From an uncultured Gemmatimonadaceae bacterium (GTDB lineage Bacteria; Gemmatimonadota; Gemmatimonadetes; Gemmatimonadales; Gemmatimonadaceae): DNA of 64,000 nt. The stretch lies in the NCBI GenBank assembly GCA_963740355.1, contig CAVUDW010000003.1, positions 1,152,001-1,216,000 on the forward strand, written 5' to 3'. The first letter of the stretch is position 1. The number at the start of each line of letters is the position of its first letter. The notes under the pieces are model-generated. The model did not search any database. It was not told the origin of the DNA and saw only the letters and a list, made by a program, of their open reading frames with translations. Made by a program: the position numbers and the translations under genes. Below, piece by piece: positions 38,031 through 61,013 of this stretch.

Positions 38031-40088
38031 CTACTGGTCCGACCGCGCCGTGATCGACGTGATGGTGGTTCCGTCAGTCACCACCCGCACCAGATGTCCC
38101 GTCACCACATACACATAGGTGTCGCCATCGCGGTCCACAGCTCGGCCGAGGCGCGACAGGGCGCTGATGGGCTGCCCAGGGGTGACACCGGCCAGTGACC
38201 ACGGGCCGGATGACATGATGCCGACGATGCGCTGACCGCCAGCCGGGTCCGGCTCGACGAGGAAGGCCACACCGGCCTCGTCGCTCTGGATGGTCTGGCC
38301 GGCGCCCACGGCACCAGGCAGCACGGTGCGGGCGTCACGCGGACGCATGCCCGTGCCAACCTTCTTCAATCCATCAGGCGACACGAGCTGGATAGAGCGG
38401 AAGCCCAGGTTGCCGATCTTGCTGTTGGCGCCGGGTGACGGGGCCACCGGGCGCGGCGCCGTGGTCGGCGTCGTCGGGGATGCGGAACCGGCGGGCAGCG
38501 TGGTCGGCGTACCGGCGCGGGCGGCCATCACGACCCGCCCCGCTTCCTGTCCCCACGGCTGCTGGCCGTAGATGTCGCGGTAGGCGGTGAGCAACGTGAG
38601 GCCGGTGGTCTTGTCCTTCTCGAACACCGAGCGTGCGTAGTTGAAGCAGACGCGCGTGCTCATCGGCTTGGTCTTGTCGCTGAGACAGTTGGTGCGCCAG
38701 GCCGTCTCCGAGGGCTGCGTGTTGCCGCCGGTGAGGATACGACCGAACACCGCGCGTGCGGAGTCGAGCTGGCCAGCCTGGTAGTACGCGATGCCAAGTG
38801 TGTTGAGCACCGACGCATCGCCGCTCGCGAGTTGCACGGCACGCTTGGCACGGGTCAACGCACGCGCCGAGTTGCCGGTGTACGCATCGAGCAATGCGAG
38901 GTTCGACAGGCTTGCGGGTCGATTGTCCACATCGGGAATCGCTTCCAGTGCCGTTCGCGCACGCGCCAGCAGCGAAACGTCACCGGTGCTGTTGTCACCG
39001 CGCAGTCCTTCCACGAAGCGCGTGCGCACGACACCGACCGTCGGCCGCACACCGAGCGCCCCGACCGGCACCGTCGACAGCCACTGCGTGAGCAACGCTG
39101 CACCCATCGCTTCATCGATGAACGGAGCGCCCGGCAGCGCACGACGCACGGAGTCGAGCATCGCGATGCCGCGATCGACTTCGACGTTGGCGCTGATCAA
39201 GCCGATGGCGCTGTCGTAGCGATCCTGTTCCTCCAGCATGCTGGCCCAGAGCCGCATGTAGAGCGCCGCGCGACGCACGGCGGACGGATGCGTGCTCATC
39301 ACACGCTCGCCCCAGAAGGCGTTCTCGCCTGATGCACGCTCCTCGGCCGCATCCATTTCCCACAGGCGCACCAGTTCACCGGCGTCGCTGAAGACATTCG
39401 TCTTGCGGGTGGCGAACATGATGTAGGCGCCGAGTGAGTCGGCGGCGAGTTCCTTGCCCTGCGAATACGAACGGCAGGCCACCACACCTGGTGCGGCGAT
39501 GCGCGTGCCCTCGGCCCTGCTGGCGGTGACGTCACCACCGGCTGCGAGGTTGTTCGAGCCGCGGCAGTTCGTGTCCTGGGCATGTCGCAGGATGAGATGC
39601 GACATCTCGTGCGCGATCACCGTCGAGAGGAAGACATCGCTCAACTCGGCCGCATTGCGACCGGTGCGCGGTGCCGCCTGGGCTGCGCGGCGATCGAGTG
39701 CCTCGATCATGCCCGTGTAGACGACGATCAGGTGATAGCCGTTGGACGGCCAGCCGGTCGCGAAGGCGTTCTGCTCGTTCTTGTTGAGCACGAGGAACCG
39801 CGTGGACCCGCCGATGTCGCGTGCGGCAGCGGCGATCGGGCGAATGAGGCGGGCGACGCGCTGGAAGCGGGCCGTCGTCAGTTCGCAGTTTGGCTTCTGG
39901 AAATCTTCGTTTTCGCGCAGCATGGTTTTCACCTGCGCTTCGAAGGCACTCTTGACCGCCGTTTCCGGGATGGCGGGCGACGGGTCGCAGGGTGCCTGCG
40001 CGCCGGCGGTACGAGCAACACTGCTGCCGATCACGAGCGTCAGGGCGACGGCGGCGCGGCGGAGTCCTGGGGAGAGGATCGTATGCAT
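38031..40088 (-). CDS. Secreted M48 family zinc protease with TPR region and C-terminal beta domain
   Basis: Signal peptide ...TAGAQ; NAFA, HEMSH, ELAAD, STHP; TPR-like LNTLGIAYYQAGQLDSA. Confidence 0.85.
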   Translation of the reverse strand: MHTILSPGLRRAAVALTLVIGSSVARTAGAQAPCDPSPAIPETAVKSAFEAQVKTMLRENEDFQKPNCELTTARFQRVARLIRPIAAAARDIGGSTRFLVLNKNEQNAFATGWPSNGYHLIVVYTGMIEALDRRAAQAAPRTGRNAAELSDVFLSTVIAHEMSHLILRHAQDTNCRGSNNLAAGGDVTASRAEGTRIAAPGVVACRSYSQGKELAADSLGAYIMFATRKTNVFSDAGELVRLWEMDAAEERASGENAFWGERVMSTHPSAVRRAALYMRLWASMLEEQDRYDSAIGLISANVEVDRGIAMLDSVRRALPGAPFIDEAMGAALLTQWLSTVPVGALGVRPTVGVVRTRFVEGLRGDNSTGDVSLLARARTALEAIPDVDNRPASLSNLALLDAYTGNSARALTRAKRAVQLASGDASVLNTLGIAYYQAGQLDSARAVFGRILTGGNTQPSETAWRTNCLSDKTKPMSTRVCFNYARSVFEKDKTTGLTLLTAYRDIYGQQPWGQEAGRVVMAARAGTPTTLPAGSASPTTPTTAPRPVAPSPGANSKIGNLGFRSIQLVSPDGLKKVGTGMRPRDARTVLPGAVGAGQTIQSDEAGVAFLVEPDPAGGQRIVGIMSSGPWSLAGVTPGQPISALSRLGRAVDRDGDTYVYVVTGHLVRVVTDGTTITSITARSDQ

Positions 40089-40337
40089 GGGCGGAGATAT
40101 AGTCGTGGAGCGAGGTCGGCAGGCAGGAAACGGATGAACGCCTGTCGCTCCGGGCTTCGGTGGCGAGACGTCTGCCCTGATGGACACGTCACGACCGATT
40201 CCGTGTCCATTCCAGCAGGGTCACCCGAACGGGTCAATTGCCCCGGGGCGACCCCGACCGTATTGCTTCCCCAGCGCGCCCACCGGTCATGTTCTGACTT
40301 GCGGGTCGGCACCTCCCTTATCGAGCGCCAGACGCAC

Positions 40338-42780
40338 ATGTCCTCCACACGTTCTTCCTCCCCGCTCGCCCTCGCGGCGTTGGCTCGGGTTTCCGGATTC
40401 CGCCGCCTCGGTTCTGGGCTGTCGGCGTTGCTGCTCTGCGCGCTGCCGATGATGACGGCGACGCCGCTCGCGGCGCAGGTTCGGCGCGCCTTGATCGTGG
40501 GGGTGAACGACTACGAGGCCTTCATTCCCGCGACGGCCGTGCGAACCGCGGTGGCCAGCGCGGCACGCCGCACACCGGCGCCGACGACCGGCGCACGTGG
40601 GGTGAGCGCGCGCGGCACGATCAGCAATCTCGAAGGCTCGGCCAACGATGCGCAGGCGGTGGCGCAGGTGATCACGGCCCGCTTCGGCTTTCAGCGGCCG
40701 AACGTGCGCGTGCTGATCGACAAGGCTGCCACCCGACAGGCGATCATCGATTCACTGACCGCGATGCTCGGCCGATCCAAGCCCGGTGACATCGCGTTCT
40801 TCAGCTTTGCCGGCCACGGGGCGCTCCGTCGCAACACGCTCACCCCAGGCAAGCAGGTCGACCAGACGCTGGTGCCGGTGGATGCCAATGCCGGTGCTGA
40901 AGACATTCGCGACAAGGAACTGGCCGCCATCATCGCACCGGCGGCGGCGCGTGGTGTGGTGATCACGGTGGTCATCGATGCCTGCAATTCCGGCTCCATC
41001 ACGCGCGGTGGCGTGCCGCAGTTGTTGAAGGAACGCTGGGCGTCGATCGATGAGCGCGACAAGGCAGAGCGCTACACTGGGCAGTTCCCGGCCGACGTTG
41101 GTGCGCTGGTGATTTCCGCGGCTGAGGACACGCGTCCGGCCAAGGAAGGCATCGACGAGAACAACGTGCGGCATGGCTTGTTCACTTCGGCGTTTCTGCA
41201 TGCGCTGATGTCGAATTCGACCAACGCCTCCGCACGCCAGATCTTCCAGAGCACGAAGGCGATCATGCAGGGGCGTGCGCCGGATCAGGTGCCGTCGATC
41301 GACGCGCAGCAGGCGCGGTTGCGTCAGCCGCTGTTCGGTGGCGCGAGCGGCGATGCCGCAGTGCGCACCACGGTCGCGCTGACCGGTTTGCGCGGCGAGC
41401 AGGCCGAACTCGATGGCGGCCTCGCGCTTGGCCTGCGACCGGGCACTGAGCTGGCGCGCCTGGTGAATGGCAAGCTGGATACGACGATGGTGGTGAAGGT
41501 CGAGCGCAACACGAGCATCGCGCGCAGCCTGGCGTCGATTGTGCGCGGTAGTGAAGACTCGCTCAAGATCGGTGACCTGTATGCGATCACACGGTGGGTG
41601 GCGGCGGATGAACCACTGCTTCGCGTCTGGGTGCCGGCACCGTTGGCGACGGAAGCGGATCGCGATGCGGCCGTGGCTGAAGCCCGGATCCTGAAGGCCA
41701 GCACCGCGATCACATGGATCGATGATCCGACGAAGATGCCCGCCGGCAATGCACCGCTGGTGACCGTCGCGTTCGAGGGCGGTTGGTGGACGCTGCGCAC
41801 CGGTCGCGAACAGCCGGTGCAGATTGGCGCGACGCTCAAGGCAGCGCGCGTGCTTGTCTGCGATCAATCAGCTCGGCGTGGCAAAACCCGCAGTCTGGCT
41901 CTCGATTCCGCCGACACGGGCGCTGGACAATGCGCTGGCGATCGGCGGCACATCGCAGGCCGCCGGCATCACGCGGGAAGGGGCGCCGGAAGGCGGGTTC
42001 TACGTGCTCGCAGGCCGCGTGACCGACACCGATGTCTCGTATGCCTGGGTGCGAGCGAACGCCTCGGCCGCCGACAGCGCGACGAGCGCCTTCCCGGCAC
42101 GGAGCAACTGGTTCCCGATCAGTTCGGCCCCATCAGCCGCCGCGGCTGGTGACTCGCTGCGCATGCGTGCCGAGGCGCTGGGGCGGGTGCGGACCTGGCT
42201 GACGATCGCCACGCCCCCGGATGAGGGGCAGTTCCCGTATCGCCTTGTGGTCGTGGATAGCGTGAGCGGCAAGCCGATCACCACCGATTCGATCACCGCC
42301 GGCACCGTGATCCAACTCCGCCTCGATGCGGACACGGCGCGGATGGCTGCGGCGGCTACCCGGCAACCACGGTTCGTCTACGTCTTCGACATCGACAGCA
42401 AAGGCAAGGCGACGCTGCTCTTCCCGTCGGACGGCACCAATGCCACGAACCGGGTGCCCTACTTCATGGGCAACAAGGAAGTCTGGCCGGACGCGATCCC
42501 CGTCACCGATGGCGGCGGGCGCGTGGCGTCGTTCGGAGCCACCGATGTCGGCGTGGAGTCGTTGCTGCTGGTGACGTCGGAGCAGGAACTGCCGCGGGAT
42601 GTCTTCGAGTGGGACGCCGTGATCACGACCGAGATCACCCGAGGCGGCAACGAATCGCAGATCGGCGGGCTGTTGCGGAGCCGAATGGGGGCGTCCCGCG
42701 GCCTTGGCGCCCGGCCGGGGTCGGCACCGGCCACCTGGTCGCTGCAGCGTGTGCAGGTCCGGATCGTCCCCAGCCGGTAA
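40338..42780 (+). CDS. Secreted caspase-family (C14) protease with C-terminal DUF4384-like domain; +1 frameshift ~41855
   Basis: RALIVGVNDY, FSFAGHG (His), DACNSG (Cys), HGLFT; second frame FVYVFDIDSKGKATLLFP...GVESLLLV. Confidence 0.85.
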
Positions 42781-42934
42781 ACCTCGCGGCATCTTGACCG
42801 AGGTCGTGTTCAGTCGTCTTGCCGAAGGACAGATTGTGGACGGTATTGTGTCAGATCGAGGTGTTCGAGTCTGTGATCGAGTGTTCGTGCGTGTCACGTT
42901 GCCGGCGTTCAGTCACGCCACCGAGGACAGTTCC

Positions 42935-45028
42935 ATGAGCCGTACATCGCTGCGTCACCGGATGCGTCAGGCCGCTCAGCTCGCGCTGACGACCGCGCTG
43001 GCAGGGCTGCTGGTGTCACCACTGACCGCGCAGGGCACGCGACGAGGGTTGGAGCCACGATCCGCATCGGGCTCCGCTGGCGCGGGATTCGGCACCTATC
43101 ACGCGATCATCTTCGCCGTCGGTGAACAGCAGCCAAGCAGTGGGCTGCCGTCGCTGCGCTTCCCGATCAAGGAAGCCGACAGCCTGCGCGCCGTGATCAC
43201 GCGTGAGTACACGTTCGATCCGAAGAATGTGCAGGTCGTGAAGAACCCGACGCGCGAAGCGATCCTCGACTCACTCGAGGCCGTGGCGCGCCGTCTCGGG
43301 CCGGAAGACAACCTGCTGGTGGTGTACAGTGGGCATGGTGGTTTTGACGAAGCCGGTCGCGAGGGCTACTGGCTGGCGGCCGACGCGGCGAACGCACGCA
43401 AGAGCACCTGGATTCCCAACGAGTCGATCCGCACCTGGCTGCGCACGCTGAAGGCGCGCTCGGTGCTGCTGATCACCGATGCCTGCTTCAGCGGTTCACT
43501 CAATCGCAGCAATGATGATCGCGTGGTGCTGCCCGCCGATAACCAGCGGGCGATTGCCGGAGCGCTGATGTATGCGCGCCGCAGCAGTCGCCAGGCGATG
43601 ACGGCCGGGACCGCGAAGGAGACGGTGCCGCAGGTGAGCATCTTCTCGATGGAGATCATCGCCGCACTGAAGGCCCGGCGCGCACCGGTGTTCATGGCGC
43701 AACAGCTTGCCGGTGAGATCAATCCGCGAGTCGCCGCCGTCGCACACACCACACCGACGTTCAGCGCAGTCCCCGGCATCGAGAGTGACCAGGGCGACTT
43801 CGTATTCGTGCGTCGCACCACGCCGACCGATGGTGGCGTGGTGGGCATGGATGATGTGTCGCGCAACAACACGGTCGGTGCGGCCACGGTGGCGCAGGGT
43901 GCAGGCGGCGTGCAGCGCGGCGCGACCGGCGCGGGCAACAGCACACCGCAACGCAATGTGGGCGCAACAGCGCCGGTGACGCAGCCTGTCACGACGCCAC
44001 GGGCTTCCTCCGGCAGCGGCAGCGGCAGCGGCAGCAGCGACCCGGGATCGAAGATGGGCAACATCGGCACCGGTACGCCGAGTACGACAACCGCGCGACC
44101 GGACGCGGCGCGCGCCGCCGCGGGTATCGAGGCGGCGCCAGTGATCGCTGCACCAACCCGACCGGCATCGAAGGCCGCACCAGGCTGCGATGGTGGCGTT
44201 GCATCCGGCTGCATCACGCTGGCGCTGAACCTCGAGTATGGTCGCAACAGTGTCGCGAAGAACGTGCCGCGCGCGGTTGGGCTCTACCGACTGGCGTGTG
44301 ATGCGAAGGATGCCGACGGCTGCATGAATCTTGGCCGCATGTACGACTCGCCGCACGAAGGGGTGTCGATGGATCGCGGCAAGGCGCGTGCATTGTATGC
44401 GCAGGCCTGCGATGCCGGCTCCGGCGACGCGTGCACATTCCTCGGCCTTGCCGCGTCGAAGGGTGAGGGTGGCCCGGTCGACGATGCGAAGGCCGCAGTG
44501 CTCTGGGCGAAGGGCTGCGATGCGGGACACATGCAAGGCTGCGCGCTGCTGGGTGTCGCGTACGCCAACGGCAAGGGTGCACCGAAGAATGAAACTCGTG
44601 CAGCCCTGCTGCTCCAGCGTGCATGCGCTGCCAATGAAGCGGTGGGTTGCGCCGCACTCGGCACCATGACCGCTGGTGGCAAGGGCGGACTGACGCGTGA
44701 CTCGGTGAAGGCGATCGGCTACTGGCGCCAGGCCTGCACCGCACCCGTGAGCGTGGCGGAAGGCTGTGCCTACCTCGGCGCTGGTTATCTGCGCGGGTCA
44801 GGCGTGATGCGTGATGACGTGCGCGCCGGCCAGTACCTGAGCCAGGGATGCGAAGGCGGATTCGCCTTCGGCTGCTCCTCGTTGGCCAGCATGTACGAAG
44901 CCGGCACGTCAGTCACCGCCAAAAGCATCACGCGAGCGGCGGAGTTCTACAAGCGCGGCTGCGATGGTGGCGACCAGAAAGCCTGTGCGTGGGTTACCGC
45001 GAACCCGCAGCCGGCACCGAAGAAGTAG
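42935..45028 (+). CDS. Secreted caspase-family (C14) protease with Sel1-like repeats
   Basis: Signal peptide ...LTAQ; YSGHG, DACFSG, GDFVF; about six Cys-containing Sel1 repeats (AC.....GC..LG..Y..G). Confidence 0.9.
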   Translation: MSRTSLRHRMRQAAQLALTTALAGLLVSPLTAQGTRRGLEPRSASGSAGAGFGTYHAIIFAVGEQQPSSGLPSLRFPIKEADSLRAVITREYTFDPKNVQVVKNPTREAILDSLEAVARRLGPEDNLLVVYSGHGGFDEAGREGYWLAADAANARKSTWIPNESIRTWLRTLKARSVLLITDACFSGSLNRSNDDRVVLPADNQRAIAGALMYARRSSRQAMTAGTAKETVPQVSIFSMEIIAALKARRAPVFMAQQLAGEINPRVAAVAHTTPTFSAVPGIESDQGDFVFVRRTTPTDGGVVGMDDVSRNNTVGAATVAQGAGGVQRGATGAGNSTPQRNVGATAPVTQPVTTPRASSGSGSGSGSSDPGSKMGNIGTGTPSTTTARPDAARAAAGIEAAPVIAAPTRPASKAAPGCDGGVASGCITLALNLEYGRNSVAKNVPRAVGLYRLACDAKDADGCMNLGRMYDSPHEGVSMDRGKARALYAQACDAGSGDACTFLGLAASKGEGGPVDDAKAAVLWAKGCDAGHMQGCALLGVAYANGKGAPKNETRAALLLQRACAANEAVGCAALGTMTAGGKGGLTRDSVKAIGYWRQACTAPVSVAEGCAYLGAGYLRGSGVMRDDVRAGQYLSQGCEGGFAFGCSSLASMYEAGTSVTAKSITRAAEFYKRGCDGGDQKACAWVTANPQPAPKK

Positions 45029-45854
45029 GCATGGCCGTGGCAACGGATGACGCTCGCCGCACATTGCGCGCTGCGACGTCGTCCTGCCAGGGCTGCGCCA
45101 ATTCGCGCAACACCGACTTCGCCACCACCGGATGCATGGCACCGGTGCGCGACAACATGCGCGCGAGCAATGCGCTCATCACCGGCGCGGCATAGCTGCT
45201 GCCGGTGACGGTCTTGGTGCCGCCACCGATCCACGGTGCCTGCACCCCCTGCCCTCCCGTCGCGAACTCGACGAGGTGGCCCGGCAGGTGATGAAAGACG
45301 CCCGCAACCGTGCGAGCCATGTTCACGGCGACGACCGTCGGAAAGTGCGACGGCCATTCGCGTCGATCGATGTCGACGTTCGAGCAGGCGGAGACGACGT
45401 GCACGTGACGCAGGTAGGCCTCGTCGACCCAGTCCTTGAACGGCAGCACGAACGCCGCATCGCCGCGACAGCCGAAGCTGCAGTTCAGGATGTGATAGCC
45501 GCGTTCCATCGCCAGTCGAGCACCGGCGGCGATGATCACGCTGCGACTCGCGAGATCCGCACCCAGGACACGAAAACTCCCGATCTGCGCGGCAGGTGCA
45601 ATGTCGTGAATGATCCCCGCGATCGCGGTACCGTGCCCGTACGCATCTTCGCCCGCTCCATCGCTGACGCTGACCCTCGGCCCCTCGCCGACGAGGATCA
45701 CATCGTCCGCGAGCGTCAAGCCATGCAGTGCGGGATGCGACGATTCGATGCCGGTATCGAGGACTGCGACGCGTATTCCGGCGCCGTCGCCGTCACGCAA
45801 CGCGGCACGTGGGCCGTCGAGGCGCAGGACGGCATCCTCAGCGCGCTCAGGCAC
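44994..45854 (-). CDS. Minimal cytoplasmic S8 subtilase
   Basis: VAVLDTG (Asp), HGTAIAG (His), GSSYAAP (Ser); no signal peptide or propeptide. Confidence 0.88.
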   Translation of the reverse strand: MPERAEDAVLRLDGPRAALRDGDGAGIRVAVLDTGIESSHPALHGLTLADDVILVGEGPRVSVSDGAGEDAYGHGTAIAGIIHDIAPAAQIGSFRVLGADLASRSVIIAAGARLAMERGYHILNCSFGCRGDAAFVLPFKDWVDEAYLRHVHVVSACSNVDIDRREWPSHFPTVVAVNMARTVAGVFHHLPGHLVEFATGGQGVQAPWIGGGTKTVTGSSYAAPVMSALLARMLSRTGAMHPVVAKSVLRELAQPWQDDVAARNVRRASSVATAMPTSSVPAAGSR

Positions 45855-46425
45855 CCTGCAACCCCAGCACCGAGTCGAGCAGCGTGAGGTCGATCAGGCG
45901 ACCAGCCACGTTGACATCCCGTTCGAAGTTCTCGAGATCCGCGGGTGAAAATCCTGGCGCCGCCGCCCCACCGGCCAATTGCACGCAGGAAACGACACCG
46001 CGCACGCCGCCGGCAAACACCAGCGGTACCGCCATCATCGCGACCGTCTGCAGCCCCAGCATGGTGTCCAGCGTCGAGTCACGCATGGCATTGCTGGCGA
46101 CGTCGTTTTCGCAGAACGCCTGCTCGGTGACCGCCACCATCCCGATGATGCCACGATCCAGTGGCTGCTCGAAACGGTCCACCAGTGTCTGTGCATGCGG
46201 GCCGCTGTTAATTGCCGGCACGAGCGAGTTTCCGCGAACCAGCCAGAGCGTGCCTTCATGCGCGCCAGAACGGACGAAGGACGTGAGGATCACGTCGCGC
46301 GCGGTCGCGGCCTGAGCGCTGCGCAGCCAGGGGCCATCAATCAGTGCACCGTACTCCTGCAGGCGGCGCTGCAACAGCGGTGCGCTGGCCGACAGTTCGG
46401 GGTCTGGGCGAAATCGATTCGGCAT
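45847..46425 (-). CDS. Stand-alone GAF domain protein
   Basis: GIIGMVA.T......D, D..LG.QT.AMMAVPL, GVVSCV, GFSPADL. Confidence 0.82.
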   Translation of the reverse strand: MPNRFRPDPELSASAPLLQRRLQEYGALIDGPWLRSAQAATARDVILTSFVRSGAHEGTLWLVRGNSLVPAINSGPHAQTLVDRFEQPLDRGIIGMVAVTEQAFCENDVASNAMRDSTLDTMLGLQTVAMMAVPLVFAGGVRGVVSCVQLAGGAAAPGFSPADLENFERDVNVAGRLIDLTLLDSVLGLQGA

Positions 46426-46436
46426 CGTGGTCTCTA

Positions 46437-48248
46437 TCAGGGAGCGGAAATCTGGGCGCTGCGCAGGCGGAATGCCTGTACCGGTTGCGAGCGTCCACTG
46501 AGCGACAACTCGCCGAGGTCGTCCACGGCCGGTGGCTTGCCTCCCAACAACAGCATCGTCGCGCCGGAGACGATGATGCGACAACGCATTGGTGCGCCGG
46601 AATCGTCCGGCAAGTCCACCGATTGCAGGCGTGCGGCCACGTTCACGACGTCACCCACCACGGTGTACTTGAGTCGTGTCGCGCCACCGATGGTACCCGC
46701 GACGGCGACGCCGCTGTGGATTCCGATGCGCGCCTGTGTGCCCGCCTTGCCGATTGACGCAGGCAGCAGGCGTTCGATGGTGGCAGCCAGAACCACCGCA
46801 CAGTTCACGGCGTTCTCGGCGTCACGTTCGATGTCGCGCGTATCGCGACGTGGCACCGGCACGCCGAAATCCGCCTTGATGCCATCACCGGCGAAGTCGT
46901 CGACCAGCCCACCGAATGTGGCAATGTCGGCCGTGCAGGCAGCCGTGACGTCGGTGAGGAGTTGCATCACCTCACTAGCAACGTGGCTTTCACTGAAACG
47001 CGTGAAGCCGCGCAGGTCGACGAACAACACCGTGACAGGCAGCTGCAGAGGTGCCGGACGTCCCCCCTCCAGGTACAGATGTCGTTCGCTCCACGCCGCA
47101 GTCGCAAGTTCCGGGGTCACGAAGCGAGAGAAGAGGAGTGTGGTGAGCCGCTGGCGTCGGCGCACTTGCCAGAACGACACCGCCTCCACGCCAAGCAGTG
47201 CCGCCACCCAGACGAGGAGCGTCGAGCCAAGCGGGAGCCACATGCCAGAGCCATCGACCAGCCAGAGCACCAGCGCCGCTTGCAGGAGAATTCCACCGAC
47301 AGCAAGAACTGGCGTCACTCGAATGGACGTCAGCGCGGCGCCAACCGCGCCGATCAGGACCCAGCTCGCGAGCCAGAGCACGACCAATGGCCATGATGCG
47401 TCGCGCACTGCCTGCCGTTCACCACGGGCGATCTGTATTCGATCGTTGATGTCGTGCGCAAGGATCGCCAGTGCCGGCATGGCGCCGACGCTGGTGGGAA
47501 CGGTGCTGCCATCGTCGATGCCGAGCAGCGCCACGGTGCCTGTCACGCGCTGACGCAGCGTCGCGAGATCGAGCGCCAGCACACTGTCGATCGACATGGC
47601 ACGAATGCCGTACCAGTCGCTTCCGGCGTCAGCGAAGCGTAGTCGGAGCGGTCGGCTGTCAGCCGGCTCCTTCGTCACCGGTGCTCGAGCGAGTCGGGCT
47701 GCGACTTCGTCGTCGAGCCAGCGCTCGCCAGTCGCGGCACGAGGCATCGTCCGTACGACACCATCGGGGTCACGCAACAGCGCCGTGAGCCCGATGCGTG
47801 GGCCAGTGTTCCGTCGTACTCGCAGTGCCTCGGGCACGAACCACGGCCACGCCACCGAGTCACCCGCGAGCGTGACGCCGACGACGACTCGCGGCGATGT
47901 CGCCAGCAAGTCTGGCAGCGAGCCAGCCGGTGCCACCGGCACCGACATATCGATGGCGATCGCGGCCGACTGTGCGCCGGCGGAGTCGAGGCGAAGCACG
48001 GCATCGGACACCATCCAATCGCCGGTGCGCGATGCGGCACGCACAACGAGCAGTTGGGGCGTGACTGGGGTATCAGCCAGTGCAGTGGCCACACGATCCC
48101 AGGCGGCGCGATCGAGGGAATCGCGAAGGCGAAGTCCCGACACCACCCCAATCGCCACCAGTGCCGCGAGAATCCCACCAGCGATCGCGAGGCCCTGCGC
48201 GTCAAGGAAACGTTCCCGTGTCGACGGGGTGTCGATCACTGGCGGCAC
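46437..48248 (-). CDS. CHASE2 domain class III adenylate/guanylate cyclase
   Basis: TM, periplasmic domain with DPDGVVR, three TMs, then TVLFVDLRGFT, GDG, RIGIHSG, YTVVGDVVNVAARL. Confidence 0.88.
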   Translation of the reverse strand: MPPVIDTPSTRERFLDAQGLAIAGGILAALVAIGVVSGLRLRDSLDRAAWDRVATALADTPVTPQLLVVRAASRTGDWMVSDAVLRLDSAGAQSAAIAIDMSVPVAPAGSLPDLLATSPRVVVGVTLAGDSVAWPWFVPEALRVRRNTGPRIGLTALLRDPDGVVRTMPRAATGERWLDDEVAARLARAPVTKEPADSRPLRLRFADAGSDWYGIRAMSIDSVLALDLATLRQRVTGTVALLGIDDGSTVPTSVGAMPALAILAHDINDRIQIARGERQAVRDASWPLVVLWLASWVLIGAVGAALTSIRVTPVLAVGGILLQAALVLWLVDGSGMWLPLGSTLLVWVAALLGVEAVSFWQVRRRQRLTTLLFSRFVTPELATAAWSERHLYLEGGRPAPLQLPVTVLFVDLRGFTRFSESHVASEVMQLLTDVTAACTADIATFGGLVDDFAGDGIKADFGVPVPRRDTRDIERDAENAVNCAVVLAATIERLLPASIGKAGTQARIGIHSGVAVAGTIGGATRLKYTVVGDVVNVAARLQSVDLPDDSGAPMRCRIIVSGATMLLLGGKPPAVDDLGELSLSGRSQPVQAFRLRSAQISAP

Positions 48249-48315
48249 GGATGCATCATACGGAAGTCACGATTCACGACGCGTTGCGTACAGACAAGGG
48301 GTGGTGTTGCGCTTC

Positions 48316-49038
48316 ATGAGACTCTCGTTCGGTTTTCCGCCGGCAGTGCTGCTGGCCGCTCCAGTGTTGCTGGCGTTGCTGGGTACGCGCCTGCAGGGGC
48401 AGGATACCACCCGATCCGCACCGCCGCCGCCCGCCGCGTCGCGCATCGCGGCGCGTTTGCTGGTGGTGTTCCGGCCACCCGTGCGCGGGGTGCGCCGCGA
48501 ACGAGCGCTCACGCGCGGTGGTGACGGCGCTCGCGCCCTGATTCCCGACGCACGCGTGGACACACTGGTACCGCAGACGCTCCGCGACACGCCGCATGTC
48601 GCGGTCTGCGCCGCCGGCGAGCCCGACTCGGCCCGGCTCACGGTGCGCATCACCGACAGCACGACCTCCACATCCGCCGATGGCATCACCTACGGGGCGA
48701 CCAGCGGAACCAGTCGGAGCGTGATGATCGGCCTTCGCGCCGGACTCAATCGCATCCCGCTCGCCTCCACCGGCCTCACGCTCGCCGACGGCGCCCTTGC
48801 CGAGTGGTCGCTCAGCACACGCTCCGGCGAGGTGTTCCTGCAGGAGTTCATTCAGCGGCACGTCGTACGCAGCACGCCAACGATCAATGCGCTGGCCACC
48901 AACGGCATCTGGTACGATGCCCTCGACCTGTTCGTGGTTGACGCGCTGCGCGGCATTCCACTGGCGAGCGAACGCCTCGATGCGTTCCTGACCAGCGTGG
49001 GTGCGATGCCATGCGCCGAGCCACCCGCCAGGCCATAG
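48316..49038 (+). CDS. Secreted DUF928-like protein
   Basis: FRPPVRG...TRGG near the N-terminus and LATNGIWYDAL near the C-terminus (DUF928 hallmarks as I recall them); divergent from the CHASE2 cyclase. Confidence 0.7.
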   Translation: MRLSFGFPPAVLLAAPVLLALLGTRLQGQDTTRSAPPPPAASRIAARLLVVFRPPVRGVRRERALTRGGDGARALIPDARVDTLVPQTLRDTPHVAVCAAGEPDSARLTVRITDSTTSTSADGITYGATSGTSRSVMIGLRAGLNRIPLASTGLTLADGALAEWSLSTRSGEVFLQEFIQRHVVRSTPTINALATNGIWYDALDLFVVDALRGIPLASERLDAFLTSVGAMPCAEPPARP

Positions 49039-49072
49039 GGATCATAGGAATGCACATGGCACGCGGCTGAAG

Positions 49073-49111
49073 CACACGGGGGATGCGCCATGTCGGTGCA
49101 TCCCCCGTGTG
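49073..49111. terminator. Hairpin between convergent genes
   Basis: CACACGGGGGATGC / GCATCCCCCGTGTG. Confidence 0.7.
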
Positions 49112-49175
49112 TCTTGTGCGTTGGTTCCTTCACTCGTGCGCCGCCCGACGCCAGACTGCGCGCCGAGCGAGTGGC

Positions 49176-49646
49176 TCAGTTACGAACCGTCCAGCGGAAG
49201 CCAGACGTCGCGTCGCCAGTGACCGGGCCCCATGACGAGTAGCTGCCATCGGTGAACACGGCGCGCGCATACAAGCGATGATCGCCAGCGCCGTAGTAGC
49301 CGCAGGCATCGCCCCACGGCGACACGGTGCCGACGAAGTTGCCGTCGACGTAGATCTTCACATACAGGTCAACGCGGCTGTCGATGCAGATCTGGCCCGG
49401 CTCGACGGCTGATGCGCCGCGCGTGCTCTTGCCAGCGGGTTCCGGCGTGGCCGGCTTGTTGAGCGCGTTCGGCGCGTCGTCCTTGCGGACGTTGGCATCG
49501 GCGCTGCCGCCGCGGCTCTTGGTGCTGTTGGAGGTGGCGCCAGCCTGGCGCTTGGCGGCCTGTGCCTGCACGTCAGTGGCAACGAACATCGTTGCTGCGA
49601 CGAGGCCAAGTCCGAGGAGAGCGGCACGAATCGTGGGAGTACGCAT
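49176..49646 (-). CDS. Small secreted protein: polar linker + ~75-aa two-Cys beta domain
   Basis: Signal peptide ...VQAQ; linker with SRGG and STRG; C-terminal ICID..VKIYVDG.FVG.V..WG..C. Confidence 0.75.
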   Translation of the reverse strand: MRTPTIRAALLGLGLVAATMFVATDVQAQAAKRQAGATSNSTKSRGGSADANVRKDDAPNALNKPATPEPAGKSTRGASAVEPGQICIDSRVDLYVKIYVDGNFVGTVSPWGDACGYYGAGDHRLYARAVFTDGSYSSWGPVTGDATSGFRWTVRN

Positions 49647-49863
49647 GGTTCGGTTCACCGTCAAAGTGAGGAGGAGTCTGGCAGCCCTGGGTAGGAGCTG
49701 CGCAATGATCTGACGCGGGGCACGACATTGTCAAGCAAACAAACGACATCCAGCTCCAGCGACCGCAGGCACTGCAACCAACACGTCACGAGCACACTTC
49801 AGGAACAGGCTGCAACAAGGACGTTCAACACCGGCTTCCATCACGTCAGACACGCCGAGACGC

Positions 49864-51309
49864 TCAGCTTGTCCATGCCGCCTGGGTCCGCCCAACCAGC
49901 ACCGAGAACCGATGGTCGGAGCGCAATCCATCCCACCGCGGGTCCACCAGCAGTTCGACGGTCCACGGCGCACGCTGCTCGATCGCGGCGGCAATCGCCC
50001 GCAGCGCGCGGCTCTGCGCTGCGGGTGAAAGCGATTTCGCTGTCCCATGCGCTACCGCCACCTGACCCGCCGCGAGGATCACCGGATCCACCACTCCTTT
50101 CGCACGCTCCGCCACACTGACCAGCGATGCGAGGTCGAAAGCGCGGGTGAGCAAAAGTGCCATCGTCAGTGAGCGGAGCGCCGAGAGGTCCATAGCGACG
50201 TCATCGAACCAGGCGCGCACCGCCAGACTGCGTGCCTCGGCGGCGCGACCGAGTGCTGCCAGTGCCCGGGCCCGATACGGCAGCACCGCAGCCGCATACG
50301 GCGCGTGGTGCGTCACGCCGAGGGCGCCGATCGGATCGCGATCTGCCAGCAGGCGCCAGCGACACTGCAGGGCAACCAGACGCGCATCGTCATGCGCCAC
50401 CTGCTGCTCGGCGCGTTCCCAGCACCGTTGCACCAGCGGATCGTCTGGCTCGGGCGCATGATCCGCCACCTCGGCCCGATCCAGCAGCGCGTGCAGCACC
50501 CGCAGTGAGCGATCGGCACCTTCGCTGAGCGGAAGTTCTTCGAGCAGCTCCAGATCGAAGGCGTCGCGCGCCGTGACTTCATCCTCAGCCACCAGCGCGT
50601 TGTCGCGCACACCGCAGACCGCCTGGGCAAATGCGATCGCGGAGCTGAAGCGAGCCTCCTGATTGCCGCCCAGCGCCCGGTGCAGCAGCAGTGTCAGTTC
50701 GTCGGGAATCTCCCCAGGCATCGGCGAGCCAACGCGCCACGGCGTGCCTGTCAGCGACTCGAAAAGTGTGCAGGCCAATGCGAAGACATCCGCCGACACT
50801 GCGCGTCGTCCCGCTGCATCGTCGAGCACTCGGCCGGTGCGCTGAAAGCCACCAAGCACCGGCTGCTGATCGATGAACGCGATAGACGCCGCCGAAATCG
50901 ACCCATGGACGATGCCGATGCTATGCGCGAAATGCAGCAGGTCTGCTATCGCGATTGCGTTCGCAACCGCAGACTCCACCGGCATCTTGCCATCGCGTTG
51001 AATTGCGTCGGCAAGCGACACCTCGATCCACGGCGTGACCATGTAGAGCCAACCGGCCGCGCGTCCCGAGTCGAGCAGCGGAAGCACTGCGGACTGGTGC
51101 GCGAGGCTCTCCAGCGCACCGATCTCGCGCGCCAGGCTGGCCGTGGCCATGCCGTCGGCGGCGCACTCGACCGCCGCAATGCAGACCGACGCACCGGAGG
51201 ACACATCCAGTGCCTGGACGACCTGCCGCGGGCCCACGCTGGTCCAGGGACCTGCGGGCTGCCAAGCGGCTGTCAGCGCGGATTCGAGCGAGGAAAGGAT
51301 CTCAGACAC
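49864..51309 (-). CDS. Ser/Thr pseudokinase with helical/TPR-like C-terminus
   Basis: Kinase scaffold (REI.AL..L.H..V.PLLDSG, L.FAH..GIVH, ADVFALAC.LFE.LTG) without catalytic motifs; C-terminal DPRWDGLRSD.RF. Confidence 0.75.
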   Translation of the reverse strand: MSEILSSLESALTAAWQPAGPWTSVGPRQVVQALDVSSGASVCIAAVECAADGMATASLAREIGALESLAHQSAVLPLLDSGRAAGWLYMVTPWIEVSLADAIQRDGKMPVESAVANAIAIADLLHFAHSIGIVHGSISAASIAFIDQQPVLGGFQRTGRVLDDAAGRRAVSADVFALACTLFESLTGTPWRVGSPMPGEIPDELTLLLHRALGGNQEARFSSAIAFAQAVCGVRDNALVAEDEVTARDAFDLELLEELPLSEGADRSLRVLHALLDRAEVADHAPEPDDPLVQRCWERAEQQVAHDDARLVALQCRWRLLADRDPIGALGVTHHAPYAAAVLPYRARALAALGRAAEARSLAVRAWFDDVAMDLSALRSLTMALLLTRAFDLASLVSVAERAKGVVDPVILAAGQVAVAHGTAKSLSPAAQSRALRAIAAAIEQRAPWTVELLVDPRWDGLRSDHRFSVLVGRTQAAWTS

Positions 51310-51494
51310 GGCGTCGTCAGTTGAGGCGGCGGGGAGGCACAGATGCGGTCGCTCTCCCGATAGACACGCTATTCGCTGTTGTTGTCCGTGCCATCACCCA
51401 AAGGGGTGAGCACCTCCGGTCGCAGCGCGTGGCCAGACTCACCGACAGGTGTCATTCTTGTGCTGTCACACACTCCTCGCACACTTCCCGACCC

Positions 51495-52385
51495 ATGCCA
51501 GACTCCTCCGCCGCCATCACGCTCCTCACCAGTCGCGCGCTGGATGGTGAGCTGACAGCCGCGGAATCCGCTCAACTGTCCGAGGCCCGCGCCGCGTCCG
51601 CCCGCGTCGATGCAGTGGCGCGCAAGGTGGAGGCAGCGCACGGTCAGATGGCACACCTTCGCGACGTTGCATCGCGTGCGGCTACCGTACCTGCCGAGTG
51701 GGCGGAAAACCTGTTCGTCACGCTGCGTGCGCAGTTCACCGCGCCACGAAAGATTCGCTACGTCGGCGGAGAAGTCACTGCGCGCGAGGCCACGCATGCC
51801 GAGGATCTGGATCTGGCGCAGGCCGCTCTCGCCGGCGAGGAGCACGCACAGCGAGAGATCTACTTCGGCCATATCGCGCTGGTGCAATACCTGTTGCAGT
51901 CACGTCGACTGGCTGCGTATCGCGATGACATTGCGCAGGACATCTTCTTCCGTGTCTTCAGCCGCCTGCACACCTATCGGGGCGACTCATCGCTCAAGAC
52001 GTGGATTCATCGCGTCGCGATCAATCACATCAACAACGTGCTCACCCGTGAGATGCCGAAGCGGGCGAAGGAGTTGAGTGAGTCACAGCTCGAGACGCCC
52101 GAGGGGAGCGTGAGCGTGATCGACGCGGCGGTGGACCCCGACGCGTTGCAGGACTCGCGGCTCGAAGGTGCCGAGCGGCGTGCGATCGTGAATGCGGCGC
52201 TGTCGCGGCTTCCGAGCGCGGCGCGGGCCGTGGTCGAAATGAAGGAGATCGACGGCTTGACCTGCGAGGAGATCGCCGAAGTGCTGGCGGTGCCGATGGG
52301 CACCGTGCAGTCTCGCCTGGCCCGGGGGCGGGCGAAGCTGGCGGAATTCCTGGTGGCGGACTCACGCACGATCAGCGCACGATGA
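51495..52385 (+). CDS. ECF sigma-70 factor with N-terminal anti-sigma-like extension
   Basis: Region 2 DIAQDIFFRVF...YRGDSSLKTWIHRVAIN; region 4 GLTCEEIAEVL.VP.GTVQSRL.RGR. Confidence 0.88.
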   Translation: MPDSSAAITLLTSRALDGELTAAESAQLSEARAASARVDAVARKVEAAHGQMAHLRDVASRAATVPAEWAENLFVTLRAQFTAPRKIRYVGGEVTAREATHAEDLDLAQAALAGEEHAQREIYFGHIALVQYLLQSRRLAAYRDDIAQDIFFRVFSRLHTYRGDSSLKTWIHRVAINHINNVLTREMPKRAKELSESQLETPEGSVSVIDAAVDPDALQDSRLEGAERRAIVNAALSRLPSAARAVVEMKEIDGLTCEEIAEVLAVPMGTVQSRLARGRAKLAEFLVADSRTISAR

Positions 52386-52609: not shown

Positions 52610-54534
52610 ATGCGCATCACGATCACGAAGCGACGTGCCCTGGTGCTGCTCGGCCTGACCACCGTCCTGCCGATGATCCTCTTCTACCCGTTCTACGGCC
52701 ATGCGCCGTGTCGGGTCGGGGCGCGAGTGGTGAAGCTCAAGAACGGCACCGAACTGCTGGATGCAAATGGGCAGCGGCTTGGCTACATGGACCCCACGCG
52801 CGACCGCTACATCACGCTCGCCGCGCTGCCGAAACATGTCCCGATTGCGTTCACCGCCGTCGAGGATCGCCGACTGAATTCGTGGTACCATCGCGGTGTC
52901 GATCCGGTGGGCACCGTCGCCGCGGCATTCAACAACCTGAAGCCGGGCGACGGGCAGCGTCGTGGCGCAAGCACGATCCCGATGCAGCTCGCGCGCGCCT
53001 TGTGCGCTGATCGCATGCCGCTCGATCACAGCTGGACCGGCAAACTCGCTGAAGCTGGGCTGGGGATGTACCTGACCACGCGATTCGGCAAGCGCCAGGT
53101 GCTGGAGCTGTACCTGAACAGCGTATATCTCGGTCGCAATCGCAACGGCATCGACGCGGCGGCGCGCTCGTACTACGGCAAGTCGGCAACGGCGCTGACG
53201 CCGGCCGACGCGGCGGAACTGGCGCACCTCGTTGCCAATCCGCGCGATCGCGATCCTGCGCAGAACGATGTCGACACCCGTCGCGCGGCGATCAATGGCG
53301 TGTTCGAGCGGATGAAGAAACTCGATGCCACGTTCACGATCACGAAGAAGCGGCTGGTGCCGTCCCGCACGCGCATCGCCGCCGCAACGCCGGTCATGTA
53401 TCGCGGCTACATCTCGCGTGTGCACGACGGCTTCGCGACCTGCCAGCCGTCGGTGACCTGTCCGACCAGTGTGCGCACCTTTCTCGATGCCGGCCTGCAG
53501 AAATCCGCCGAGCGCGAGCTGACGGCGCTGGTGAAGCGACTGCAGGGGCCAGATCGCAAGCGGGCCAGGAGCGACACGTCACCACGCGACGTGAAGTGGC
53601 CGGCATCTTCGTCGCGATGCGTGTGTCGACCGGGGAAGTGGTGAGCTACACCGGCCGGCATGGTCGCACGCTGGCGGGTGCCGACCTGCTGCGTATCGGG
53701 CGGATCCAACCCGCCAGCACGTTGAAGCCGATCCTGCTCGCGACTGCGATCGATGATGGCAATGTCTACACCGACGAGACACTCGGCGAGTTGATGGACA
53801 GTCACTGTCGCGATCCGAAGGTGCACGAATACCTGGCCACGCTGAGCGGCGCGGATGCACCGGAACGCACGCTGGCCGAAGCGCTCTACCGAAGTGACAA
53901 CGTGCTGGGCGCCTGCCTGATGGCGGGGCTGAGCCCACAGGCACGACAGCGGCTGGTGTCGGCCGGCCTGCTGCGCACCGTGAACGCCACGCCGGCGGAT
54001 GGGTTGGGGCTGCAGACCGTGGCGCCACTCGACTTGTTGACGGCATACGCCGCGCTGCGCACACGTGATCGGGCGTTGCTGCCACGCTTCAGCGGATACG
54101 ACCCCGCTGGAATTGCGGCGCCGCTGATGTCGCCGATGTCGGCCGAGATGACGTATTCGCTGCTGCAGGGTGTGGTGCAGCAAGGCACCGCGTGGCGTGC
54201 GGCGAGCGTGTTGAACGACGACTACGCGCTGGCGGGCAAGACGGGCACGGCGGGGCGCGGTCGCGAGCTGGTGTTCGTTGGTTTTGCGCGCGACCTGGTG
54301 GCGTTGCTGTGGGTCGGCGTCGTCTCGGGCAATGGTGCGGTGTCACCGCAGCATGCGTCGGACGTGGTGGTGGAGCCGTGGGCGCGGATTCTGCGGGCGT
54401 ATGCGCCGCGCGAGGACGAGATGGAGATGGGGCCGCAGGAGGATGAGGCGCCGAGCAACATCGAGATCAACGCGGAAGAGATGCGGCGGTGGATCGCGAA
54501 GCTGGCGCGGCGGGTGGAGCGGCAGACGTTGTGA
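52610..54534 (+). CDS. Class A penicillin-binding protein (transglycosylase/transpeptidase); frameshift ~53595
   Basis: AVEDRR, HRGVD, GASTI.MQLAR, LELYLN.VYLG; second frame STLK (SxxK), SDN, KTG. Confidence 0.85.
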
Positions 54535-59506: not shown

Positions 59507-59601
59507 AAGCACCGGGAGGATCGCATTCTTGAGTTCTCCTTTCGCGGACGTAGAGAAAATGTCGCGAAAGACTCGCACCATAAAGCACCCCTATTTTGAC
59601 T

Positions 59602-60909: not shown

Positions 60910-60944
60910 GCAGATCCCCCCGCCTCGGACTTCAAACTAGTTCT

Positions 60945-61013
60945 TCAGTTCCACGTCTGCGTACCGCCAAAAGCTGCGGCGATAAGACCTGCGAATGCGG
61001 CCCAGAAACCCAT
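60945..61013 (-). CDS. 22-aa peptide MGFWAAFAGLIAAAFGGTQTWN (below the ORF-track cutoff)
   Basis: AAGGGAGGTG Shine-Dalgarno 7 nt before ATG; TGA stop 35 nt upstream of the HD-GYP start. Confidence 0.7.
   Translation of the reverse strand: MGFWAAFAGLIAAAFGGTQTWN

Follow-up and report, generated by a model that had tools for sequence, protein, structure and literature searches.

A candidate trans-envelope signalling locus with a GAF-subtilase pair in an uncultured Gemmatimonadaceae bacterium

Gene content and distribution of the locus

The window analysed here is a stretch of 64,000 nucleotides from an uncultured Gemmatimonadaceae bacterium (assembly GCA_963740355.1, contig CAVUDW010000003.1, positions 1,152,001 to 1,216,000), and positions 38,031 to 52,385 of it hold ten genes that could form a signalling switch acting across the cell envelope. 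The original prediction had named ten open reading frames (ORFs) with their domains, and each was found at its predicted position with those domains. Because the orientations are mixed, the ten genes are not one operon. They make up two modules, module A comprising the secreted M48 metallopeptidase and two caspases, and module B the subtilase (family S8), the GAF protein, the CHASE2 cyclase, the DUF928-like protein and the extracytoplasmic function (ECF) sigma factor, together with a pseudokinase. The features are listed below (AF2, AlphaFold 2; pLDDT, predicted local distance difference test; E, expectation value).

38031..40088, minus strand: secreted M48 metallopeptidase with TPR repeats, module A, predicted sigma target (Pfam PF01435, E 1e-14, and TPR; promoter motif upstream)
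40182..40208, no strand assigned: ECF-type promoter motif GGACAC-N15-GTGTCC, a palindrome in the gap separating the divergent genes of M48 and caspase A (exact in 9/9 sigma-bearing loci)
40338..42780, plus strand: secreted caspase-family (C14) protease with DUF4384, caspase A (Pfam PF00656, PF14326)
42935..45028, plus strand: secreted caspase-family protease with Sel1 repeats, caspase B, module A (Pfam PF00656, PF08238)
44994..45854, minus strand: cytoplasmic S8 subtilase without prodomain (Pfam PF00082; AF2 pLDDT 88)
45847..46425, minus strand: stand-alone GAF protein, similar to phosphodiesterase GAF-A, overlapping the start of the S8 gene (Pfam GAF)
46437..48248, minus strand: membrane CHASE2 class III nucleotide cyclase (Pfam PF05226, PF00211)
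48316..49038, plus strand: secreted DUF928-like protein, divergent from the cyclase, with a conserved L-T-R-G (RG in 8/8)
49176..49646, minus strand: small secreted two-Cys protein in which (T/S)RG is conserved at two places, predicted sigma target (best Atlas match an unnamed cluster, 0.91)
49848..49874, minus strand: ECF-type promoter motif aimed at the small-protein gene and overlapping the pseudokinase stop (exact in 7/9 sigma-bearing loci)
49864..51309, minus strand: pseudokinase-TPR protein with EVTAR in the linker joining the two domains (catalytic motifs lost)
50566..50580, minus strand: E-V-T-A-R at residues 244-248 of the pseudokinase, a candidate S8 site within its linker (V and R in 9/9, E in 8/9)
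51362..51387, minus strand: ECF-type promoter motif in the gap separating the divergent genes of pseudokinase and sigma (in 10/10 sigma-bearing loci)
51495..52385, plus strand: ECF sigma factor whose N-terminal extension is four-helical and anti-sigma-like (Pfam/NCBIfam; AF2)
51771..51785, plus strand: E-V-T-A-R at the junction of the sigma extension and core, a candidate S8 site (E-V-x-(A/G)-R in 46/48 homologues)

The active sites of the secreted proteases are intact: the M48 protein carries HEMSH, with HExxH kept in 14/14 sequences of the congener comparison, and the His-Cys dyads of the caspases are kept in all congeners with coverage (13/13 for caspase B). The caspase A gene is broken in this assembly by a one-base frameshift near 41850, and it is one ORF in 13/13 congener loci. 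A second cluster of three caspase-family genes lies elsewhere in the same genome (G000:C3:2047957-2058433). Signal peptides were called by eye and by hydropathy with a cut of 1.6, and the peaks of the M48 and caspase B signal regions (1.43-1.45) fall under it. The DUF928-like protein scored 12.8 bits against Pfam PF06051 (cut-off 26 bits, E 0.1); its top three Atlas matches were DUF928 proteins (score 0.87, a lead only), and it matched the Pfam-positive DUF928 protein of a sister locus described below (BLAST E 2e-4), which supports a distant relationship to DUF928. Scans of the locus for sigma-70 promoters and terminators gave hits at chance level only. Near-identical homologues of the window proteins carry Gemmatimonadaceae labels in the databases.

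Sixty relatives were searched for the genes of module B. A full-length cyclase orthologue was present in 8 of the 19 genomes of the same genus and in 0/41 others; the sigma factor and the GAF protein were present in the same eight congeners, and the pseudokinase, queried with its C-terminal part, in 7/19, all sigma-bearing. Module B is thus all-or-none in 8/19 congeners, save for the pseudokinase (seven, G015 being without it). One relative in this tally (G026) and one of the distant loci introduced below (L057/G839) are marked unpublished, and no conclusion rests on either. Lack of synteny in other genomes would have counted against the original prediction, and this was not what was seen: gene order and orientation are repeated in the eight congeners, G015 included, as far as the contigs extend. 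No close relative of the S8 was found in a phylum-wide sample of 400 genomes (best 36%).

The locus itself was fetched from 18 of the 19 congeners, G008 giving no anchor match. Module A, looked for at this site alone, was present in 14/18; six of the 14 were without module B, and four congeners had neither module. Three of the six genomes with module A alone (G013, G016 and G018) retain the small gene, with both flanking halves of module B gone: the two halves that flank this gene are lost together. Module B was never found without module A (8/8 congeners). Three clades of the marker tree contain module B, and G015, which has it, is nested among genomes that are without it. The trees of module B genes (FastTree) are roughly congruent with the marker tree, suggesting one old acquisition and several losses, and module B was probably acquired once, long ago, and then lost a few times.

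The GAF-subtilase pair and its candidate recognition motif

The Asp/His/Ser triad of the window S8 is invariant among its homologues, and the nearest relatives outside the genus (50-60% identity) carry Verrucomicrobiota labels. The neighborhood of the pair was explored in a GAF-anchored set of 86 loci (79 metagenomic and 7 genomic; 38 clusters at 70% identity) collected with profiles seeded from L045, L049 and L050, three loci that match by construction. An S8 gene adjoined the GAF gene in 74 of the 75 loci with enough sequence. Other neighbors were a protein of about 78 residues (35/59) and a sigma of the ECF-like kind (24/43). At L045:8286-10831 and in about 24 metagenomic loci, a four-gene operon encodes a sigma factor resembling Myxococcales family 1, the 78-residue protein with an EVEGR motif, the GAF protein and the S8, often with a cyclase gene next; in L050 the small protein is present in triplicate. 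A CHASE2 or caspase/CHAT gene lay near the pair in 1 of 21 long loci outside Gemmatimonadota. In 57 unrelated control S8 loci no GAF, no such sigma, no cyclase and no domain binding cyclic nucleoside monophosphates (cNMP) was found, and CHAT was found in one.

The GAF gene was also found directly upstream of an S8 gene in 13 more distant loci from Actinomycetota, Chloroflexota, Acidobacteriota and Lentisphaeria, 11 of which also encode a cNMP-binding protein. Three S8 loci of similar closeness (L052, L063 and L066) showed no GAF. The GAF-linked S8s form a clade (66/68 tips, FastTree support 0.805), inside which the window S8 is nested in the Verrucomicrobiota-type group (support 0.925); both the S8 and the GAF appear to have been imported from a Verrucomicrobiota-like lineage. 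The S8 search of a 401-genome Verrucomicrobiota sample gave two matches, too few for co-occurrence statistics, and a plasmid search returned distant S8s only. Prediction of an S8-GAF complex scored 0.00 in two runs whose controls did not fold, and it is not used as evidence.

A candidate substrate for the S8 is the sigma factor. Its N-terminal extension of about 95 residues is modelled by AF2 as helices over residues 5-81 (pLDDT 70-89), followed by a poorly ordered linker (83-105, under 50) with EVTAR at its end. The pattern E-V-x-(A/G)-R stands at this junction between extension and core in 46/48 homologues, both misses being fragments; in the 44 full-length homologues E, V and R are invariant, position 3 is variable and position 4 is Ala or Gly throughout. 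The natural N-terminus of stand-alone sigmas aligns directly behind the motif, and the N-terminus left by a cut there is predicted to be Asp or Glu in 93% of the homologues. In more distant fused sigmas (about 32-39% identity), (D/E)-V-x-G-(R/H) occupies the same junction in 7/8. A small family of such ECF sigmas with a fused N-terminal extension and this junction comprises P0236, P0237, P0242-P0246 and P0269. Neither the distant fused sigmas nor a match to the GAF profile was found in 301 genomes of the Acidobacteriota sample (a search without positive control), and the distant fused sigmas were not found among the loci collected for this analysis either.

The extension has four predicted helices and no zinc ligands, and Foldseek returned ECF sigma entries with no anti-sigma match named. 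We infer from a weak zf-HC2-like pattern that it may be anti-sigma-like. The same motif, as EV[ESTQ][GA][RH], is present in 37/43 of the 78-residue proteins. Three sigma/anti-sigma arrangements with the motif are seen beside GAF-S8: the fused sigma of the window, a sigma with the protein of about 78 residues, and an ECF sigma with a zf-HC2 anti-sigma (L142).

In the window, the strict form of the motif, which occurs 30 times in the 1.74 million residues of the genome, is found in only two of 24 proteins, the sigma factor and the pseudokinase. The latter has lost the VAIK Lys, the HRD Asp and the DFG in 8/8 sequences. Its motif was found after the motif had been defined and lies in a hypervariable linker (flank identity mostly 0-0.4) in which V and R are kept in 9/9 and E in 8/9. 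The looser E-V-x-(G/A)-R occurs 126 times in the genome, equivalent to 0.035 expected in a protein of this length.

In loci without the 78-residue protein the motif also closes the leader-like segments of small Cys-rich peptides beside ATP-binding cassette (ABC) exporters. Such peptides, rich in Cys and Trp, with leaders ending in EVTGH, EVAGH, EVGGR or DVGGR and often in tandem copies near GAF-S8 and an ABC exporter, were seen in L167, L174, L181, L185, L142, L171 and L192, and it is possible that they are an undescribed family matured by the GAF-linked S8. Short proteins with D[VTA][EQ]G[HRQ] repeats occurred in 7 of the 13 distant loci versus 0/57 controls. Acidic tandem-repeat mini-proteins (DxEGH/Q) lie beside GAF-S8, Crp and fusions of major facilitator superfamily and cNMP domains in L054, L058, L059, L061, L062, L064 and L103 (Actinomycetota and Chloroflexota). 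No tagged neighbor was seen in several Verrucomicrobiota-type loci (e.g. L047, L161, L170 and L205).

Subtilisin subsites take a hydrophobic P4, a free P3, a small P2 and, with an acidic residue at the floor of the S1 pocket, a basic P1. In an alignment to subtilisins, the residue of the window S8 that aligns to the Gly of the G-Y-P segment, which we take to be Gly166 at the S1 floor, is Glu. A literature search on subtilisin G166D found nothing. This position is Glu in 51/51 Verrucomicrobiota-type S8s, Ser, Thr or Gly in 13/13 distant S8s and Glu in 4/50 controls, and the tag ending co-varies with it: partners of Glu-type enzymes mostly end in Arg, and the repeat peptides of the distant Ser/Thr/Gly type in His or Gln. 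The pentapeptide fits the subtilisin subsites, and a candidate S8 cut after its Arg is supported by sequence. The tail of the window S8 itself, DVAARNV (residues 259-265, about 45060-45080, minus strand), is conserved and resembles this candidate substrate motif. It lies at what we take to be the usual end of the subtilisin fold, where AF2 places a short helix, and it is probably structural, not an auto-inhibitory pseudo-substrate.

The predicted nucleotide and the promoter motif

Both metal-binding Asp residues and the Asn/Arg pair of the cyclase are invariant in 9/9 sequences, as is DDFAGD, in keeping with a class III enzyme. The base-specifying position is Asp in 9/9, aligning to a Glu of Cya2 (2w01) and a Lys of CyaB and CyaC, and the Lys of ATP-specific adenylate cyclases is absent. 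Cya2 of Synechocystis, described in PMC5995499 as a CHASE2 guanylate cyclase that the E488K substitution turns into an adenylate cyclase, shares with the window protein the order CHASE2, transmembrane region, class III cyclase and an acidic base-specifying residue (Glu in Cya2, Asp here). The best PDB matches of the GAF protein were PDE6C GAF-A (E 2e-5) and 5w10 (E 1e-4), and all eight matches with E <0.01 are phosphodiesterase GAFs or chimeras. The cyclase residue and the GAF type agree, and the predicted product is most likely cGMP.

A sister CHASE2 cyclase with the same Asp is encoded in congener G004 (L033:8173-16732), in an operon of caspase-TPR, caspase, cyclase, DUF928 and a Pycsar-type transmembrane effector (PF18967, scanned in L033), next to an RHS gene; G012 has the same operon in part (L034:6136-9474). 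The position of these sister cyclases beside a Pycsar-type effector makes a pyrimidine, non-purine product possible, and the operon hints at a role in defence.

Alignment of two upstream regions revealed a bipartite motif. GGACAA-N14-17-GTGTC occurs twice in the window (0.14 expected), and GGACA(A/C)-N14/15-GTGTC gave 25 matches in 316.5 kb of loci with the sigma factor, every one of them at one of three fixed positions, versus none in 188.9 kb without it; kinship among the congeners limits these statistics. The perfect palindrome between the M48 and caspase A genes is exact in 9/9 loci with the sigma and has at least three mismatches in 6/6 without it. The site ahead of the small gene is exact in 7/9 loci with the sigma (one being a shared site in G015) and in 0/3 without, and the one between the pseudokinase and sigma genes is present in 10/10 sigma-bearing loci. 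No copy of the motif was seen upstream of the genes for the cyclase, the DUF928-like protein, the GAF protein or caspase B, and it occurred once in 515 kb of Verrucomicrobiota-type loci, where the sigma is of another family. ECF sigma factors recognize promoters of the -35/-10 form, and the half-site spacing and the direction of the downstream genes fit such a promoter. The sigma factor is the sole DNA-binding protein in module B.

Whole-genome scans found six sites in each of three sigma-bearing genomes, and one and two in two genomes without the sigma (control matches 0-3). Away from the locus, one site stands ahead of a secreted YbjN-family gene in G000, the genome of the window (G000:C2:2083247), and in G001 and G009. 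In further genomes, which served as an out-of-sample test, it was exact in G011, G015 and G017 and had one mismatch in G014, G006 being untestable; it was absent in 5/5 genomes that have the gene without the sigma, where the upstream gene abuts. The motif also stands ahead of a secreted PPC-domain gene (G000:C3:2095258), in G000 and G014 only.

A possible signalling pathway, its alternatives and related systems

Several independent sequence signals indicate that the genes of the locus are functionally coupled, and the picture that we favor, on balance and with some reserve, is a trans-envelope switch with secreted proteases as its output. A cyclic nucleotide, most likely cGMP, would be made by the CHASE2 receptor, whose extracellular partner is probably the DUF928-like protein, and the stand-alone GAF protein would bind this nucleotide and control the neighboring prodomain-less subtilase; we lean somewhat towards these two steps taken together. 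The subtilase would then, as is likely from the motif and the S1 residue, cut after the Arg of E-V-x-(A/G)-R and free the sigma factor from its anti-sigma-like domain. It would also split the pseudokinase-TPR protein, which would probably be a sigma-induced decoy or feedback brake. That the freed sigma reads GGACA(A/C)-N14/15-GTGTC is a prediction we hold with good confidence. Within the locus it would transcribe the genes of M48, caspase A (probably followed by caspase B), the small secreted protein and the pseudokinase, and elsewhere in the genome at least one gene for a secreted YbjN-like protein; the caspases are likely outputs. The physiological role would probably be an inducible extracellular defence or envelope remodelling.

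The original prediction had drawn a chain from secreted caspases through the CHASE2 cyclase, the GAF protein and the subtilase to a self-inhibited sigma. Its cytoplasmic half, from cyclase and cNMP to the sigma, gains support from the pairing of GAF-S8 with cyclases, cNMP receptors and sigma/anti-sigma genes, by the shared motif and by the co-retention of module B. The extracellular half stays conjectural: the promoter motif puts the M48, caspase A and small-protein genes downstream of the sigma and not at the input, though a feedback loop is possible, the caspases and M48 persist without the cyclase in six genomes, and CHASE2 or caspase/CHAT genes are rare beside GAF-S8 outside Gemmatimonadota (1 of 21 long loci).

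A number of observations weigh against the pathway. Of the 21 long loci, only 8 have a cyclase gene near GAF-S8, and the NKFDE motif of the GAF protein is incomplete (F and D kept, N-K and E not). Two congeners that do not have this GAF encode the sister cyclases with that Asp, so the extracellular unit is independent of GAF-S8 and the product need not be cGMP. The comparison of the sigma extension with the profile of the 78-residue family was not significant (hhalign E 0.1), and Pfam zf-HC2 matches only 3/43 of the 78-residue proteins (best E 0.016). In the sigma the motif stands four residues ahead of the conserved core and could be structural there; in two of the four genomes found to carry the 78-residue protein beside its sigma, no S8 match was present. 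No genome-wide enrichment of the promoter motif was seen at spacing 14-15 (4 and 4, versus 0-5 at other spacings). The pseudokinase gene is missing in G015. Finally, the kinship of the congeners and the likely single origin of module B mean that the 9-versus-0 counts overstate independence.

One alternative, the original prediction with a feedback step added, extends the pathway into a closed loop, in which Arg-specific caspases would cut the DUF928-like or the small protein at (T/S)R-G, the product would activate CHASE2 and the sigma would make more caspase. Conserved (T/S)R-G sites do lie in linkers of the secreted proteins and behind the catalytic Cys of caspase A (ITRGG in 12/12), and orthocaspases cleave behind basic residues (PMC6426788, as far as its available text goes). 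(T/S)RG is commoner in secreted than in cytoplasmic residues (6 in 2591 versus 1 in 3575), an enrichment that is weak because 1.9-3.1 were already expected; that of conserved RG in variable context (3/45 versus 0/157 dipeptides) is weak too. The CHASE2 cyclase, DUF928 and caspase/CHAT genes adjoin in G004, in L045 and, partly and by order, in G012 and G031. The restriction of module B to genomes with module A would also suit a loop, but it may stem from one insertion, and module A stands alone in six genomes. We consider this loop possible and doubtful, and a return of caspase products as the CHASE2 ligand must be regarded as equally uncertain. A still broader reading is offered as a tentative proposal only: a cNMP-gated GAF-subtilase pair, found across phyla, would read a portable tag (D/E)-V-x-(G/A)-(R/H/Q) on anti-sigmas, fused sigmas, pseudokinases and peptide precursors, and here would drive a self-amplifying envelope loop in which sigma-induced caspases cut a pro-ligand at R-G and re-trigger the CHASE2 guanylate cyclase, possibly in neighboring cells too.

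The pentapeptide could instead be a docking site, bound reversibly by the GAF protein or the S8, with the sigma under partner switching and the pseudokinase as competitor. A motif common to sigma and pseudokinase suits competition as well as cleavage, and two genomes have the 78-residue protein and the sigma with no S8 match. However, the motif is shaped like a subtilisin substrate by the subsite rules given above, co-varies with the S1 floor and closes leader-like segments of Cys-rich peptides near ABC exporters, and the S8 triad is invariant; we regard docking as improbable. Still less credence is given to a cut that inactivates the sigma, so that the nucleotide would shut down the regulon: the site is outside the sigma core, exactly at the start of the stand-alone relatives, and a cut there would leave the acidic N-terminus noted above. 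An N-terminal Asp or Glu is not known to be a bacterial N-degron. The idea has its parallel in the ECF54 sigmas, proposed to be silenced by neighboring subtilase or CHAT proteases (PMC8999054, available part). Very unlikely, in our view, is a chance mosaic in which a QhpE-like leader peptidase and its GAF partner sit amid unrelated accessory genes. The mixed orientations, the apparent import of S8 and GAF, the many relatives adjoining peptides and exporters and the best NCBIfam match of the S8 (QhpE, under cut-off) would all agree with it, but the locus is without precursor or exporter, two neighbors carry the motif and, through the promoter motif, both module A and an unlinked gene are tied to whether the sigma is present.

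The closest known logic is that of CalpL-CalpT-CalpS of type III CRISPR systems, in which a second messenger activates a protease, an anti-sigma is cut and an ECF-like sigma is freed (bioRxiv 10.1101/2024.05.08.593097, available part). The sequence from second messenger to protease, anti-sigma cleavage and sigma release would be the same here, as judged from the motif, the S1 residue and the context. Unlike CalpL/T/S, the locus has a class III cyclase whose CHASE2 sensor is extracellular, GAF in place of SAVED and a subtilase in place of Lon; sensor and protease are separate genes, and the putative anti-sigma is fused to the sigma. The locus would work like CalpL/T/S and is not a member of it. 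In agreement with the statement of the original prediction that the window holds no CRISPR genes, no SAVED, Lon or Cas family was found in a scan confined to the 32 ORFs of 30-59 kb.

ECF54, according to the available part of the review PMC8999054, is mainly actinobacterial, has no anti-sigma and is subject to proteolytic inactivation, with subtilase and CHAT genes nearby. The window likewise has an ECF sigma near subtilase and caspase-clan genes (two C14, not CHAT), but the N-terminal extension argues against membership. Fused anti-sigma extensions of ECFs removed by proteolysis are a precedent, the named N-terminal cases being transmembrane (ECF36), and a GAF, a cyclase or a soluble N-terminal extension with this motif was not met in the available part of that review. 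In EACC2-caspase systems (Kaur et al. 2021, PMC8195603) a caspase and an ECF sigma likewise share one neighborhood, in some cases with CHASE2, and the output is proposed to be transcriptional. Those caspases form fusions with EACC2 and the sensor, whereas the window caspases are secreted as proteins of their own; neither subtilisin nor GAF is mentioned in the main text of that paper. The window caspases had no Pfam EACC match (in a library whose EACC2 model was not confirmed), and scored 47 and 69 against caspase_w_EACC1 (cut-off 140). QhpE (PMC7876137, available part) is, like the window S8, a small cytoplasmic subtilisin-like protease; it removes an N-terminal leader and often lies beside an ABC exporter. 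Unlike QhpE, the window S8 scores 78.6 bits against NCBIfam NF049966 (cut-off 165) and has no qhp genes nearby, a GAF partner and regulators as candidate substrates. Cyanobacterial caspase-CHASE2 fusions share pieces with the locus (PMC2853523, available part).

The original prediction knew of no description of this gene combination, and none was found in the literature, in a search that left subscription papers mostly outside and omitted supplements, which could list such neighborhoods. What is new here is the pentapeptide common to a fused sigma, a pseudokinase and anti-sigma-like proteins, the second-messenger, protease and anti-sigma logic itself being known. If true, the pathway would lead from a 3',5'-cyclic nucleotide to proteolytic sigma release independently of CRISPR, in phyla where signalling has hardly been studied. 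Cut site, specificity residue, promoter and nucleotide are all predicted here, and each step is testable. It would also provide a handle on CHASE2/DUF928 sensing, on the function of cGMP in bacteria and on the purpose of secreted bacterial caspases, and a nucleotide-gated, sequence-specific protease that reads a tag of five residues could serve as a part in synthetic biology.

Beyond the sigma gene lies a gene for a protein similar to penicillin-binding protein (PBP) 1a (52610-54534), core in the genus. It was rejected as a part of the system since it is kept in all four genomes with neither module at the site. It has a frameshift near 53570 in this assembly only and is whole in 15/15 congeners; among the contigs of two DNA sequencing runs, no listed piece spanned this frameshift or that of caspase A. 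The regulator-AAA gene at 56536-59017 is two ORFs here and a single ORF of roughly 940-1040 residues in congeners, so a third assembly frameshift is probable there. In several congeners a 283-residue gene and an ABA4-like gene, missing from the window, precede the PBP gene (L125:8347-9637 and others). The GC content is 55-56% over positions 58000-61000 of the window versus 65% elsewhere.

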